This document shows positions 3,130 to 11,925 of a stretch of DNA of 11,925 nt, one piece after another. Made by a program: the position numbers and the translations under genes. Source of the DNA: Leptolyngbyaceae cyanobacterium (GTDB lineage Bacteria > Cyanobacteriota > Cyanobacteriia > Phormidesmidales > Phormidesmidaceae); assembly GCA_050331235.1 (NCBI GenBank), contig JBHJHA010000102.1, positions 1 through 11,925 of the forward strand, in the 5' to 3' direction. Numbering within the stretch: position 1 is the first letter of the stretch; each line of letters starts with the position of its first letter. The notes beneath the pieces were generated by a model. That model did no database searches. It was not told the DNA's origin and was given only the letters and a program-made list of their open reading frames with translations.

Positions 3130-4194
3130 CTATGCCGAGGTCCGCTCAAACCCTAGTTGCACCAGCTGATCGACGAGGGTTTCGAAATCAACGCCGCTGG
3201 CCTGCCACAGCGTGGGATACATGCTGGTTTGAGTAAAGCCGGGCAAAGTATTGATTTCATTGATAAAAACTGCGCCCGTGGACTCGACGTAGAAAAAATC
3301 GACCCGCGATAGTCCAGCGGCATCCACCGCTTGGAAAGCCTGAACCGCCATTTCCTGAATTTGTTGGCTAATTTCTCGCGGTAATTGGGCGGGGATGGTT
3401 AAGTCCGCTCGCCCCTGGGTGTATTTGGTCTCGTAGTCGTAAAAGTCGCTCTCAAAGGTGATTTCGCCAATGATGGAAGCTTTGGGTACGTCGTTGCCGA
3501 GCACAGCGCATTCTACCTCACGGGCCGTGACTCCGGCTTCGACAATTAGGCGGCGATCATAGCTGGCGGCACTGTCTAAGGCGGCTTCCAACTCCTGGCG
3601 CGATCGCACTTTAGCAATTCCTACGGATGACCCTAAATTGGCTGGTTTGACAAAAGCGGGATAGCCTAATTCGGCTTCGATGCGATCGCACAGCTTGGGA
3701 AACACGCAGGGATTGGACCAAACCTCAGCCCGAGAGACCGCCACATATTTGACCTGGGGCAGCCCGGCCTGGGCAAAGGCTGTTTTCATGGCGACTTTAT
3801 CCATCCCGACGGCGGAACCCAAGACCCCGGAACCCACGAAGGGCATGTTGAGCAAAGAGAGTAGACCTTGGATGGTGCCATCTTCCCCATTGGGACCATG
3901 CAGCACGGGAAACCAAATGTCAACAGTGCTGAGCATCTCAGCACTGGGCAGGCGCTGTGCTGCGGTAACGCCGTCGGGATCATTGCCAGTGGGCTCCCCC
4001 GCTTGTAGAGTTTGCGCGGCTGTATCGTCCCACCGCCAGACACCGGCTTTAGTGATGTAAACGGGGATCACCGTGTATTTATCTTGATTGCTGCCCCGTG
4101 AGAGGGCTCCCGCGATCGCCCGAGCTGAGCGAATAGAAACCTCATGTTCCCCAGAGCACCCCCCAAACAAAACGCCGACTCGTGTTTTTGCCAT
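3130..4194 (-). CDS. ddl: D-alanine--D-alanine ligase
   Basis: Motifs [54 protein letters not shown] and [14 protein letters not shown]. An AGGAG RBS lies 7 nt upstream of the ATG. Confidence 0.98.
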
Positions 4195-4318: not shown

Positions 4319-4354
4319 AAAAAAAACCCCGAGTTTCCAGAAGAGACTCAGGGT
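4319..4354 (-). terminator. Rho-independent terminator of the NsiR1-like RNA
   Basis: Minus-strand stem ACCCTGAGTCTC / GAAACTCGGGGT (11 of 12 paired, including one G-U), loop TTCTG, running into an 8-T tract (A8 at 4319-4326 on the + strand). Confidence 0.85.
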
Positions 4355-4377
4355 GCGACAATCAGGGTGCATCTACC
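4319..4377 (-). ncRNA. nsiR1: NsiR1-like small RNA (~59 nt)
   Basis: The minus strand reads GGTAGATGCACCCTGATTGTCGCACCCTGAGTCTCTTCTGGAAACTCGGGGTTTTTTTT. The 5' GGTAGATGCACCCTGA matches the conserved 5' end of NsiR1 as I recall it. The ~60-nt length, the 3' terminator and the upstream TCCGGA also fit. Confidence 0.72.
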
Positions 4378-4415
4378 ACTTCAGTTTTCCCCTCGCGACT
4401 CATCCGTCCGGATGA
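4378..4415 (-). promoter_or_regulatory. Putative DIF1-type promoter (TCCGGA at about -35) of the NsiR1-like RNA
   Basis: TCCGGA at 4407-4412 is -35..-30 relative to the inferred +1 at 4377. It is embedded in the palindrome TCATCCG-TC-CGGATGA (4400-4415). The -10 region reads GGGGAAAACT. Confidence 0.6.
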
Positions 4416-4582
4416 TATTCAGCTGCCTATCCATTTTTGCCTCTTAGGAACCGCTACAACTACAATGAGTCCCGCCCTGATGGATGGATGTGGGGCGATC
4501 GCTGGCATCAGCTGCCGTATCTAAAGTGACTGTTGAGCGGCCATCGTTTAGGCAAAATACGCGAAATTGTCAAGGAGTCATC

Positions 4583-4753
4583 ATGAACGAGTCGGTGAAT
4601 TGCGAAAAGTTAGCCAGCGTGCTCAACCGGGCCAGTGCTGATGGCAAGCACCAGTTTTGCAAGATGCTATGGGGCAACCAACCTGAAATGGTGCAGGCGC
4701 AGTTGATTCCCTTACTGAGTCACCAAGCCCAAGATGTGGTCAATGAAGCCTAG
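4583..4753 (+). CDS. Small hypothetical protein, 56 aa
   Basis: A strong RBS (AAGGAG, 4572-4577) precedes the ATG at 4583. Sequence: MNESVNCEKLASVLNRASADGKHQFCKMLWGNQPEMVQAQLIPLLSHQAQDVVNEA, with an amphipathic helical pattern. This start is preferred over 4484 in the track. Confidence 0.75.
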   Translation: MNESVNCEKLASVLNRASADGKHQFCKMLWGNQPEMVQAQLIPLLSHQAQDVVNEA

Positions 4754-8026: not shown

Positions 8027-9136
8027 ATGGAAAGCGCCTCCTGGCTCGATATCATTCTCAAGCGGTTGCGATTTTTCAGCCGACCTGTCCCCCTTGCCTC
8101 TACTGTGGGGGCTTTGTTATTGGCGGTCTTTATCTGGGAATATGTGTCGCACCCGGAATGGTTTGGAGCCTTTGAATCCACTAGTGCCAGTCCCAACCAG
8201 GATGTTGATTTGTCTGATTTGACTCCGGAAGAGCAGGCTGCCATCTCCGGCATCGATAACCTATCGCTGTTATTTCGGGAGTTGGGGGTGGAGTCTGGTG
8301 GCGTTCCCCAGTTGCAGGCTTTGGGCGACTCATCAGAAGCTGAGGAAAACGCCTTTTTGAATGAGGCGTTGGCGATCGCCCAGCCAAATCAAGTTGAGGC
8401 CTCAGCCAGCGGCAACCCCTTTACCCAGTATCTGGAGCAGTACCAGTTTGGCCGTCAGCGTTCTACCTCAGAGTCGGCGGCGACGAATTCTTCTCGTAAT
8501 GCGAATAGCTTCAGCTACTTCCAGACAAATAGCGACACGTCGACCAGCGATCGCTATAACCCCTTGACTGCGGCTTTACAAAATGACTCGGGCCAATTGG
8601 AGGGTGACTTACAAACTACAGCTGAAGAAGATGCAGAAAACTCAGCGCTCGAAACCGAATTGCGATCGCAATCAGCCAGCGGCTCAGATACCTCAAGCGA
8701 TGAGCGATCGTCTGAGGCCCTAACCGACAGCGGCTTACCCATTGGTGAATTTAGTTCCCAAACGGTTACTGTTCCTGGCGTCAATTTTCCGGTGCTGCCT
8801 ACCCTGCCGAAAATGTCGCCGCCGCCAGGCACGACGGGCTACACTCCCCCCGCCTCTTTAAACTTGATGCCACCGCTGCCAGGGGTTTCCTCGGCTCCGG
8901 CTCCGAGCAGTGCGGGGGTACCTGACCTGTCCACTTTAAACGGAGCAACTTCGGTCAATACTCCCCAGGTAGATGTCAGCAATGGGTACACCCCTTACAC
9001 GCCCACGGTGCCGAGTGCCGCCCCGACCACCACCGGCCCAACGTCACAACCCTTTACGGCACCTCGGCCACCGGGCTCTTACACCGGTGGTGGTTACATT
9101 AATACGTTCTCTAACCCCAACGGCCCCTCTAATTGA
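8027..9136 (+). CDS. Hypothetical membrane-anchored Ser/Thr/Pro-rich protein
   Basis: 369-aa ORF. A basic N-terminus is followed by a hydrophobic segment (LASTVGALLLAVFIWEYV), then an acidic Ser-rich linker, a Pro-rich region and a C-terminal GGGYINTFSNP. Confidence 0.85.
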   Translation: MESASWLDIILKRLRFFSRPVPLASTVGALLLAVFIWEYVSHPEWFGAFESTSASPNQDVDLSDLTPEEQAAISGIDNLSLLFRELGVESGGVPQLQALGDSSEAEENAFLNEALAIAQPNQVEASASGNPFTQYLEQYQFGRQRSTSESAATNSSRNANSFSYFQTNSDTSTSDRYNPLTAALQNDSGQLEGDLQTTAEEDAENSALETELRSQSASGSDTSSDERSSEALTDSGLPIGEFSSQTVTVPGVNFPVLPTLPKMSPPPGTTGYTPPASLNLMPPLPGVSSAPAPSSAGVPDLSTLNGATSVNTPQVDVSNGYTPYTPTVPSAAPTTTGPTSQPFTAPRPPGSYTGGGYINTFSNPNGPSN

Positions 9137-9240
9137 CCCGCTGCTGAGCCGATAGGTCAGCGCAAGACTGCGCATGAGAGTCAGCGGCTAGCAAACTGAC
9201 GGTGAGCTACCCTGTGGAAAACCGTTTGGAGGCTGTTTCC

Positions 9241-11925
9241 GTGGCGAGCCGGCTCTGGAAATTTCTCACGACTGATATCCAAGATTTAGTCTCCCTTGAT
9301 ACCGTTGATAGCGGCAAAGACGCGGCGGCGGCTGTATTGGGGTTGGCCGAGGTACTGCAAACAGAGGGCCCTAATGTCCGGCAACTTGCGCCCCTCATTA
9401 CTCAGCTGGATTCGCTGCTAGATATTCTGAACTCGCCCCTGGGCAATATTGTGGGCGCCAGTCTACCGTTTGTTTCTATCGCTACGGGGTTGCTCAAGTT
9501 TTATCTCGAGAAAGCCCACAAAGAGCCCACGATCGCCCAAAGCGTTGCCTTGGTCAGTCAGGCCGCCTATCTCGCCACCGTCAAAGAATTTCTCGAACAG
9601 CCACAGTACCAACGCTGGCTCGAAAAAGTGGGCGATCGCCCCGCCGCTGCGCCGGTCGAGCAACGGCTCAAAGCGCTAGAAACCCTGGAGCTAAGCGAGA
9701 CCCAAGCGCGGCGGGCTTTGCTGCACTTCCATGAGTCTGAGCTGGCCACGGCATATAACGCTGCCTTTGTCGCGCGATTGGTGGAACTTGGTGCTCAGCT
9801 TGCCAGAGCTGAAAAAGTAGCGATTAAAATCGCCCGGGATACCAATCGATTGATGCTGCAAACGTTGGTGAGCTGTAGCGACAGCGTCAGTGCCTTAGTC
9901 GAGTGGTATCGCATTGGCGGCAAAGCAGAATTTGAAAAGTACCTCAGCATCGACACTTATCTAGACGAAGTTATTGCCCCCGGCCCCCACGACCGAGTAT
10001 TTGCTGAGCCCTTTGCCTTTAAAGATATCTATGTGCCGATGAAGGCCCACCCCCTGACAAACGCAGGCGAGCCAGACGAGTCACAAGCCCCAGTCGAGTT
10101 AGAAGCGTGGGCGCGGCAGATGCTCAACGACACGGCTCAAAAAGACCGCGTGATGTTTGTGCAGGGCGGGCCGGGCCGGGGAAAAAGTGTCTTTTGTCGC
10201 ATGTTTGCCGACTGGGTGCGCCGCTACGAGCATCCTCGCTGGACGCCGATCTTAATTCGCCTGCGTGACGTTCCTATACTGTCGCGCGATTTTGAGGAAA
10301 CGCTGGCAAAAGCGGTGGATCGCGACTTTACCAAAACTGACTCGGGCTGGCTGACCGATCGCAACGTCAACTTTCTGTTTATTCTTGATGGGTTTGACGA
10401 ACTGCTGCTGGAAGGGCGCACCAGCAGCGGTTTGAACAATTTTTTAGACCAGGTAGGGCGGTTTCAAGAGCAGTGCGCCCGCAACTCTGAAAAACATCAC
10501 CGGATATTGGTTACCGGGCGAACGCTGGCTTTGCAGGCGATCGAGAGTCGCATGCCGATGAACCTCGCCCGGATCAAAATCTTGCCGATGGATGATGACA
10601 TCCAACGCCGCTGGTTTGAGCGGTGGGGGCGGCTCATTCATCAAGACGATGCCTATCTGATGCAGATCTTGCAAGATCAACGCCTGCCAGAGCGGGTAAC
10701 CGAGCTCGCCCGCGAACCGCTGCTGCTATATCTGCTAGCGGCGATGCACCGCGATGGCGAATTGCGCCTAGACATGTTTGCCGGAGCCGAGGGCGCCCAG
10801 GCCAAGGTGCTGATCTATGAGCGCACACTGGACTGGGTACTAACCAAACAGCGGGCTGAGGGACACCGCCGCGACCCCCAAAGTCAAACCACCCTTCCCG
10901 CTCGTGACCTCAACCCCGACATCACCGAACTCGCCCCTAAAAACCTGCGCCGCATCTTGCAAGAGGCCGGACTCTGTGTGGTGCAGTCGGGCATGGAGTT
11001 TGCCAGCATCGGCGCGATCGAAGACCGCCTCAGCCAAGACAGCACCGCCAAAGCCTTTTTAGAAGCTGCTCAAAAGCGTTTAGAAACTGACGACACCCCT
11101 CTCCGTAATGCCCTTGCAGCTTTTTATCTACAAGAGGGCCGTCAAGGTGAAGGCTCTATCGAATTTGTCCACAAAAGCTTTGGTGAATTTCTCTGTGCTG
11201 AGCGCATTGTCAATGGACTAATCGACATTTGCCAACCCGGACGCAATCGCGAATACGACATTAATGACCCCGCCTTTTGCTGGCTGATGTATGACCTGCT
11301 CGGTTGCCACGTTCTCACTCCCGAAATCGTTGAATACCTCACCGCCCTACTCACCAAACACCCCGAATTTGCCGCAGCAAAGCTACACCAACGCCTCTAT
11401 GACTTTTACTGGCGCTGGAGCGACGGCGAATTTATCGATGCGCCACCCGAGAACTTACCGCAGCAAAAAATGCGACTGCTGCGCGAGCGTATGCCTAATC
11501 GTGAAGAGGTCTTAGGGCAGCGCCAGGTCGATACTTATACCGGACTCAACACTATGATTTTGCTGTTTGAGCTGCATCGTTTTGGTTTGCCGATGCCGGA
11601 TATAGAGAAACTCGTCGCAGATACCAATCCACCCTCAACCTCTTTGGCCTTTAACCCTGGCCAGATGATGGATAGTGAGGAGTTCGATGCTACCAAGTTG
11701 CTCAGATTGATGGGAATGAGCTGCTGCTTGGGCACTGGTGCTTTTAACCAACTTGTCGGTTCATTTCTCCGCAACGCCGACCTTAGCGACGCCGACCTCA
11801 GCAACGCCGACCTCCGCAACGCCGACCTCCGCAACGCCGCCCTCCGCAACGCCGACCTCCGGAAGGCTGACTTGACAGAGGCAAGACTATCGGATGAATA
11901 TATGCCAGAGATTCATAGGAATGAC
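9241..11925 (+). CDS. NACHT-domain (STAND) NTPase with C-terminal pentapeptide repeats, 3'-partial (at least 895 aa)
   Basis: Translated by hand and open from the GTG at 9241 (GGAGG RBS at 9228-9232; MASRLWKFLTTDIQ) to the window end. Walker A GGPGRGKS (10165-10188), Walker B FLFILDGFDEL (10372-10404), sensor-1 RILVTGR, helical-domain AREPLLLYLL, winged-helix EFVHKSFGEFLCA, then ADLxN pentapeptides. Confidence 0.93.
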   Translation, partial: MASRLWKFLTTDIQDLVSLDTVDSGKDAAAAVLGLAEVLQTEGPNVRQLAPLITQLDSLLDILNSPLGNIVGASLPFVSIATGLLKFYLEKAHKEPTIAQSVALVSQAAYLATVKEFLEQPQYQRWLEKVGDRPAAAPVEQRLKALETLELSETQARRALLHFHESELATAYNAAFVARLVELGAQLARAEKVAIKIARDTNRLMLQTLVSCSDSVSALVEWYRIGGKAEFEKYLSIDTYLDEVIAPGPHDRVFAEPFAFKDIYVPMKAHPLTNAGEPDESQAPVELEAWARQMLNDTAQKDRVMFVQGGPGRGKSVFCRMFADWVRRYEHPRWTPILIRLRDVPILSRDFEETLAKAVDRDFTKTDSGWLTDRNVNFLFILDGFDELLLEGRTSSGLNNFLDQVGRFQEQCARNSEKHHRILVTGRTLALQAIESRMPMNLARIKILPMDDDIQRRWFERWGRLIHQDDAYLMQILQDQRLPERVTELAREPLLLYLLAAMHRDGELRLDMFAGAEGAQAKVLIYERTLDWVLTKQRAEGHRRDPQSQTTLPARDLNPDITELAPKNLRRILQEAGLCVVQSGMEFASIGAIEDRLSQDSTAKAFLEAAQKRLETDDTPLRNALAAFYLQEGRQGEGSIEFVHKSFGEFLCAERIVNGLIDICQPGRNREYDINDPAFCWLMYDLLGCHVLTPEIVEYLTALLTKHPEFAAAKLHQRLYDFYWRWSDGEFIDAPPENLPQQKMRLLRERMPNREEVLGQRQVDTYTGLNTMILLFELHRFGLPMPDIEKLVADTNPPSTSLAFNPGQMMDSEEFDATKLLRLMGMSCCLGTGAFNQLVGSFLRNADLSDADLSNADLRNADLRNAALRNADLRKADLTEARLSDEYMPEIHRND
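11767..11886 (+). repeat. 15-bp tandem repeat (about 8 units) encoding pentapeptide repeats
   Basis: The consensus CTCCGCAACGCCGAC is exact at 11767, 11812 and 11842, with variants at 11782, 11797, 11827, 11857 and a degenerate unit at 11872. It encodes LRNAD LSDAD LSNAD LRNAD LRNAA LRNAD LRKAD LTEAR. Confidence 0.95.

Follow-up and report, generated by a model that had tools for sequence, protein, structure and literature searches.

Introduction

What does the small RNA NsiR1, whose proven targets in Nostoc are hetF (antisense) and alr3234, a gene of the HetP-like kind (PMC9045159), do in a filament that most likely makes no heterocysts? The question is raised by a locus in a contig of 11,925 nucleotides from a Leptolyngbyaceae cyanobacterium (JBHJHA010000102.1), which was analysed over its whole length and is called the window below. 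The presence of NsiR1 outside heterocyst-formers is by itself not news. A table of 2016 (PMC4734099 Table S3) lists homologues in 38 of 89 genomes; 27 of these hosts are heterocystous, which leaves 11 that are not, among them, as we read the columns, Trichodesmium, Arthrospira 8005, Microcoleus FGP-2 and Leptolyngbya PCC 6406/7375. In addition, an expressed 57-nt NsiR1-like RNA was described in Limnospira (PMC8400943, 2021). In the accessible parts of these two papers, we found no analysis of promoters, copy number, hetZ link or targets in non-heterocystous hosts. Leptolyngbya BL0902 has hetR, patX and hetZ-patU together with a predicted DIF1 promoter, and NsiR1 goes unmentioned in the accessible text of the same paper, which describes the role of hetR, patX and hetZ in filaments without heterocysts as a mystery (PMC11298460).

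An NsiR1 gene upstream of ddl

The Rfam covariance model of NsiR1 (RF02399) matched positions 4378-4319 of the minus strand from model position 1 to 60. It scored 55.5 bits where 39 is the gathering threshold (E 5.8e-9), and this was its only match in the window. The element is almost certainly a member of the NsiR1 family, in agreement with the preliminary description, which had recognized an NsiR1-like RNA from its letters; it thus extends an RNA family already known. The compact minus-strand unit of about 59 nt that had been described, running from TCCGGA to eight T residues, was found with all its parts in place (Table 1). TCCGGA occupies -35 to -30 when G4377 is taken as +1, a 16-nt spacer separates it from GGAA, and the conserved 5′ motif begins at 4378/4377, which gives an RNA of 59-60 nt.

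Table 1. Features of the NsiR1 locus and its neighbours in the window
Feature	Position	Strand	Basis
DIF1 motif TCCGGA, -35 box of a sigma-HetZ-type promoter	4407..4412	-	Sequence; invariant in 16/16 copies upstream of ddl; consensus of PMC13342950
Predicted -10 box GGAA	4387..4390	-	16 nt past TCCGGA; G and A invariant in 16/16 aligned copies
NsiR1 small RNA gene, ~60 nt	4319..4378	-	RF02399, full model, 55.5 bits vs 39
Near-invariant 5′ region, predicted base-pairing seed	4361..4378	-	187 distinct copies; complementary to hetZ′ start regions
Intrinsic terminator, stem-loop 4354-4326 and T8 4326-4319	4319..4354	-	Fold; compensatory stem changes
ddl, D-alanine-D-alanine ligase	3130..4194	-	Pfam and NCBIfam; start 125 nt past the NsiR1 terminator, same strand
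Conserved 56-aa ORF, divergent from the NsiR1 promoter	4583..4753	+	31 homologues

Alignment of 16 copies located upstream of ddl showed no variation in the first 17 nt of the RNA, in the TCCGGA motif or in the -10 box's G and A; eight of these copies had been picked by a pattern containing TCCGGA, and the -10 box was part of no selecting pattern. The terminator stem carries changes on both sides at 6 of its 12 pairs, and a simple terminator scan made no call at 4354-4319. Almost no variation of the 5′ seed was seen among 187 distinct NsiR1 copies, a set gathered by the seed motif itself with up to two substitutions allowed, and opening of the seed is cheap (1.8 kcal/mol). The mini-hairpin that had been proposed at the 5′ end appears in the minimum-energy fold and is absent from the centroid fold; it never varies, the whole fold reaches a z of only -1.5, and we regard this hairpin as marginal.

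Compared with NsiR1 of Nostoc/Anabaena sp. PCC 7120 (RF02399; PMC9045159), the element shares the length of ~60 nt, the 5′ sequence, the DIF1 promoter, the intrinsic terminator and the occurrence in several copies. Unlike the 12-copy array of that strain, the copies here are four and dispersed, none is antisense to hetF, no HetP-family target was found, and the host is most likely without heterocysts. The element is therefore not a Nostoc-type nsiR1–hetF locus. Moreover, hetZ′, which is discussed below as a target, is not named as one in the accessible part of PMC9045159.

The host most likely forms no heterocysts

The assembly (4.80 Mb, 52.6% GC, 95.5% complete) encodes HetR (541.5 bits, cut-off 489), HetZ (608.7 bits, cut-off 550) and a HetZ′ just under its cut-off (605.4 against 612), as well as a third HetZ paralogue. 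With HetZ over cut-off, the gene of the cognate sigma factor for a sigma-HetZ-type promoter is present. The gene 5′ of hetR, designated patX, has three RGSGR motifs and a DIF1-like promoter, and scored under the cut-off of the PatX model; the ORF after hetZ was called patU by position only. A second, divergent HetR-like gene (C39:66763-67716, minus strand) reached 353 bits, below the HetR cut-off.

A hetF-like gene lies on another contig (C24:16329-18974), in accordance with the earlier statement that hetF is not near this locus. It is 48% identical over 425 residues to a protein beside an NsiR1 array, which itself is called HetF by position. No NsiR1 copy was found on contig C24, and no good pairing site was found upstream of this gene.

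The host has nifB-nifS-nifU-nifH-nifD. In the host and in two genomes of the same genus, no HglE-type/PfaA-family gene over cut-off and no match to the HetP family (NF037966) were found, and 2 of 2 array-bearing genomes have both families. Among the named records in which NsiR1 lies upstream of ddl are Halomicronema sp. CCY15110 (Nodosilineales), whose Ddl is 81.5% identical, and Leptolyngbya sp. PCC 6406. Because HglE-type and HetP genes were not found and the same gene order recurs in these records, we take the host, as judged from its genes, to be most likely a filamentous diazotroph without heterocysts. The preliminary description had reached the same view from GC content, an argument that these gene tests replace.

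Other copies in the genome

The RNA had been called solitary, which is true of the window only. A search of the assembly with the Rfam model returned four copies over cut-off, dispersed on four contigs with no tandem array, and one look-alike was found in addition. All four exact matches to the 12-nt motif have TCCGGA or TCCGGT at -35/-36; since TCCGGA occurs 706 times across the assembly, its pairing with the motif is not a matter of chance. One copy, on contig C88, deviates from both promoter boxes.

The look-alike (C51:7003-7054, minus strand), unreported by the Rfam search, lies just 3′ of gatB, with the seed from position 3 onwards and a clean terminator. Upstream of it there is no TCCGGA, and a GGG-N5-CCC box and a CATACT hexamer are found instead. 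GGG-N5-CCC is the minimal HetR site (PMC4192349), and the look-alike is possibly a HetR-controlled NsiR1 copy. As a separate observation, the terminator of the C67 copy (C67:16775-16828, plus strand) lies right at the stop codon of a gene running towards it, and may act as terminator for both strands.

A sigma-HetZ-type promoter

HetZ was reported to be a sigma factor reading TCCGGA-N16-17-TGNA-N7-9-T, with the DIF1 motif as its -35 box (PMC13342950). The promoter of this NsiR1 gene, TCCGGA-N16-GGAA-N8-T, fits this consensus with tolerated substitutions, which bears out the DIF1-type promoter proposed earlier: G-12 and A-10 match, and the substitutions are G at -13 and A at -11, both partly or fully tolerated in the Anabaena work, T-13 to G only partly (PMC13342950). 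The pattern alone is common, with 115 sites in the genome.

In Anabaena, sigma-HetZ ChIP peaks lie over nsiR1(1-12) and at the promoter of alr0202, i.e. hetZ′, whose product acts like HetZ and is weakly expressed (PMC13342950). In the hetZ4-201 mutant, nsiR1 RNA went up, yet the ChIP peak dropped from 8.4- to 3.4-fold (PMC13342950), so that dependence on HetZ alone is not simple; as a guess, HetZ′ could account for the rise. The sigma-HetZ regulon has been shown in Anabaena only (PMC13342950), and the present host shares with it hetZ, hetZ′, hetR and patX with a DIF1-like promoter, in addition to a promoter of the TCCGGA-N16-17-(T)GNA type. By analogy, a HetZ-type sigma factor is likely to drive NsiR1 here.

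NsiR1 and HetZ occur together

Among 151 genomes drawn across the phylum, NsiR1 was over cut-off in 35, and HetZ was over cut-off in the same 35 (the two lists were matched by eye). HetR was found in these 35 and in one more genome (G131), which is without hetZ and has NsiR1 only at a sub-threshold level; NsiR1 tracks hetZ slightly better than hetR. Seventeen of the 35 genomes belong to one family (f7), taken to be heterocyst-formers from their arrays, their hetF linkage and the HglE-type and HetP tests, and 18 to ten other families. The genomes are related, so that the co-occurrence reflects few events and not 35, and the counts describe a pattern rather than a p-value. This coincidence makes the module of HetZ and NsiR1 look ancestral and not repurposed; the preliminary description had offered both, and the second finds no support. 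A link of NsiR1 to nitrogen fixation was ruled out, since 7 of 28 nifH-positive genomes have neither NsiR1 nor HetZ; absences of nifH are unreliable in this set, as 7 of 17 array-bearing genomes scored none.

Near the host, NsiR1 was present in 24 of 24 other genomes of the same family, and non-heterocystous homologues are already in print, so the rarity that the first description implied has to be given up. All 35 of 41 relatives with NsiR1 have a hetZ- or hetZ′-level match, and the six without it have no HetZ match or only the distant third paralogue. Outside family f7, TCCGGA was found within one mismatch in 100 of 104 distinct copies, 61 of them exact, in a set not selected by promoter. 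A pattern scan gave at least 119 NsiR1 loci, whose titles include Coleofasciculus, Moorena, Microcoleus, Laspinema and Limnothrix. Among the matches listed, a hetF-like gene adjoins NsiR1 in 31 of 80 flanked named loci and is divergent in those inspected. Linkage to hetF thus exists also outside heterocyst-formers, and is missing in this genome. Tandem arrays of 6-10 copies were observed outside family f7 as well (L118, L087, L088 and L092, one titled Potamolinea), which means that arrays are not confined to heterocyst-formers.

hetZ′ as a predicted target

The mRNAs of hetZ and hetZ′ were candidates chosen beforehand and not by an unbiased screen. In 37 of 45 hetZ′ genes and in 16 of 19 families, array-bearing ones included, a near-complement of the seed (GTGCATCTACC, at most two edits) is found no more than 30 nt from an in-frame ATG. 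For hetR the count is 1 of 20 genes, and among windows of this genome it is 66 of 6711. The 45 regions remained from 47 after two without an in-frame ATG were dropped; hetZ′ and hetR regions were subsets of those found, the latter from 20 of 36 genomes. From the end of the site to the ATG there are 0-18 nt; in 30 of the 37 cases the site lies ahead of the first in-frame ATG. In family f2 the strict motif is missing and a related site lies on the ATG.

When each family had one vote and only first-ATG windows were counted, the mean duplex energy at hetZ′ was -14.6 kcal/mol, against -8.8 ± 1.1 for shuffled seeds and -8.4 for random genomic 18-mers, none of which was as low (0/300 in each case). 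Control windows of hetZ′ gave -9.7 (antisense) and -10.3 kcal/mol (100 nt upstream). Start windows of hetR gave -8.4 kcal/mol, a value equalled or passed by 79 of 300 shuffled seeds. In a best-site search over 800 nt, hetZ′ reached -17.4 and its antisense -16.9, and only start-anchored windows separated them. With accessibility taken into account, 31 of 45 hetZ′ sites were in the lowest 5%, and 14 of 45 first-ATG windows missed it.

In the host, the site GTGCACTACC ends 7 nt 5′ of the ATG of hetZ′ and is already accessible, with an opening cost of 2.8 kcal/mol. Its net energy with opening costs is -11.7 kcal/mol, which places it among the lowest 0.4% when set against 491 random genes. In a ranking by raw energy, hetZ′ is number 72 of 3497, and number 10 when the first 13 nt of NsiR1 are used. 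As the seed is invariant, no compensatory change can be demonstrated for this pairing. We consider hetZ′ probably a real, repressed target of NsiR1, as far as sequence comparison can tell. In the literature searched, neither hetZ nor hetZ′ was found as an NsiR1 target, and a prior mention elsewhere is possible; the conserved site at hetZ′ is thus a prediction that we did not find in print.

The same data bear on the best-surviving alternative, in which NsiR1 is HetZ-driven and acts in trans, its main conserved targets are other mRNAs, and the motif at hetZ′ is retained for some different purpose, for example as a cis structure or a site bound by a protein. Pairing would extend over a short stretch (about 11-12 bp, interrupted by a bulge or mismatch), a fuzzy motif of the hetZ′ type is carried by 63 of 3519 genes of this genome, hetZ′ did not come out of an unbiased cross-genome screen, and Nostoc copies have other proven targets (PMC9045159). 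Against this alternative, the motif is strand-specific, stands beside the start codon though not at a fixed distance, persists in 16 of 19 families, and fits the invariant seed much more closely than it fits any of 300 shuffled seeds or 300 18-mers from the genome. For this reason, we hold this alternative unlikely, at perhaps one chance in four, and prefer repression of hetZ′.

hetZ and other candidate targets

The mRNA of hetZ has a different, two-part site before its conserved GTG, with -16.3 kcal/mol for 57 of 62 regions (five without the start motif were dropped), and the hetZ′-type motif was found in 0 of these 57. Shuffled seeds gave -9.2 ± 1.4 kcal/mol (0/300 as low); when the 3′ seven bases of the seed were kept, they gave -13.9 ± 1.4, and 15 of 300 matched the real value. 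In many genomes this site may be N-terminal coding sequence; in the host it is non-coding, as shown by an in-frame stop. Net binding in the host is only -6.6 kcal/mol, weaker than at hetZ′, with 8.8 kcal/mol needed to open the start region.

Two genomes of family f4 (L255 and L256, i.e. G092 and G008) have a near-perfect complement of the seed ~175 nt upstream of the hetZ match (-27.4 kcal/mol) and are without the start-proximal hetZ site. A site of -21 kcal/mol ~275 nt upstream of hetZ in the host was discarded, because its position is not shared in relatives. Moreover, hetF, hetR, patX, ddl and the third HetZ paralogue were rejected as host targets, with net energies of -1.7 to -3.8 kcal/mol, i.e. 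background. Exact complements of at least 12 nt outside the NsiR1 copies exist at two sites in the genome. Upstream of hetR, at -190 to -240, 3 of 20 genomes (L291, L299 and L301) share a motif that complements the seed's 3′ half; none was seen in this genome.

A proposed circuit and its alternatives

We propose that sigma-HetZ or HetZ′, as extrapolated from Anabaena, would transcribe the four independent NsiR1 genes, and that the open 5′ end of the RNA would cover the ribosome-binding region of hetZ′ mRNA and damp the synthesis of HetZ′, with hetZ mRNA as a weaker second target. The outcome would be negative feedback; should HetZ drive hetZ′ as well, to which the Anabaena peak points, it would be an incoherent feed-forward loop. 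This loop could be an old part of the HetR–PatX/HetZ–PatU circuit of filamentous cyanobacteria; the targets hetF (antisense) and alr3234 would have been added in Nostoc and are lacking here. For the whole reading, in which HetZ-driven NsiR1 represses translation of hetZ′, a rough probability of 0.6 seems appropriate. There is an even chance that stopping translation of HetZ′ (alr0202), and of HetZ more weakly, is the original and still-kept job of NsiR1 in heterocystous and non-heterocystous filaments alike.

Instead of acting in trans, the unit might act in cis, a HetZ promoter and a leaky terminator placing ddl, and with it cell-wall precursor synthesis, under HetZ by read-through. The position of ddl on the same strand 125 nt downstream fits this, as does the same order in 17 of 119 pattern-scan loci among the matches listed; in addition, two other copies of this genome precede co-oriented genes (argG-like and leucyl-aminopeptidase-like). 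Neighbours vary from copy to copy, however: the C67 copy is opposed to its downstream gene, the 31 of 80 named loci mentioned above adjoin a hetF-like gene instead, and the conserved part is the seed and not the flank. We therefore hold a cis role improbable.

The sign of regulation is the subject of another alternative, that NsiR1 pairs with hetZ′ or hetZ mRNA and activates or stabilises it, giving positive feedback. Overexpression of NsiR1 in Nostoc promotes differentiation and raises HetR (PMC9045159), and the start region of hetZ in the host is fairly structured. Against this, the site at hetZ′ is accessible as it stands and borders on or overlaps the region bound by the ribosome, and both proven NsiR1 targets are repressed (PMC9045159). 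Activation thus appears very unlikely, and repression of hetZ′ is retained. That the element is a silent relic, or the ordinary case in a heterocyst-forming host, is hardly credible: the host has nif genes, and HglE-type or HetP genes could be missing from an assembly of this completeness, but promoter, seed and terminator are conserved with compensatory changes, these genes were not found in the two same-genus genomes either, and the gene order is that of the Halomicronema and Leptolyngbya records.

An alternative sigma factor that turns on a small RNA lowering the output of its own circuit is known from sigmaE with MicA and RybB. The sequences are unrelated, and the RNA described here, unlike those two, is predicted to hit the mRNA of the sigma factor's paralogue directly. 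The sigma-HetZ network as published has the protein inhibitors PatU3 and PatS/PatX, and no RNA arm on hetZ′ was found in the accessible parts of PMC13342950 and PMC11298460. If our reading is true, the best-studied patterning system in bacteria would gain an RNA feedback arm in its core circuit, namely an inhibitor arm that is absent from the published HetR–PatS/HetZ–PatU circuit and older than heterocysts. It would imply a HetZ-on cell state in plain filaments, account for the near-constant 5′ end of NsiR1 where the two known targets are missing, and may account for the low expression of hetZ′ in Anabaena. The NsiR1 unit is also a ready reporter of sigma-HetZ activity in non-heterocystous hosts.

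Neighbouring genes

The 56-aa ORF that diverges from the NsiR1 promoter matched no known family or atlas entry in Pfam, NCBIfam and the atlas searched; its 31 homologues include named ones in Nodosilinea and in Leptolyngbya BL0902 (GFS31_21100) and KIOST-1, and its arrangement with NsiR1 is the same in 5 of 10 relatives with a match to the ORF. Near it, a weak sigma-70-like site (4437-4466) stands back to back with the NsiR1 promoter, and beyond it lies ribBA. Further along the plus strand, the frame at 8027-9136 encodes a low-complexity, S/T/P-rich protein of 369 aa that has a single hydrophobic stretch near its N-terminus and matched nothing in Pfam or NCBIfam. It is followed at 9178-11925 by an open frame of at least 916 aa, absent from the default ORF list, that runs off the contig end and contains a P-loop, NACHT-like by eye, and pentapeptide repeats.
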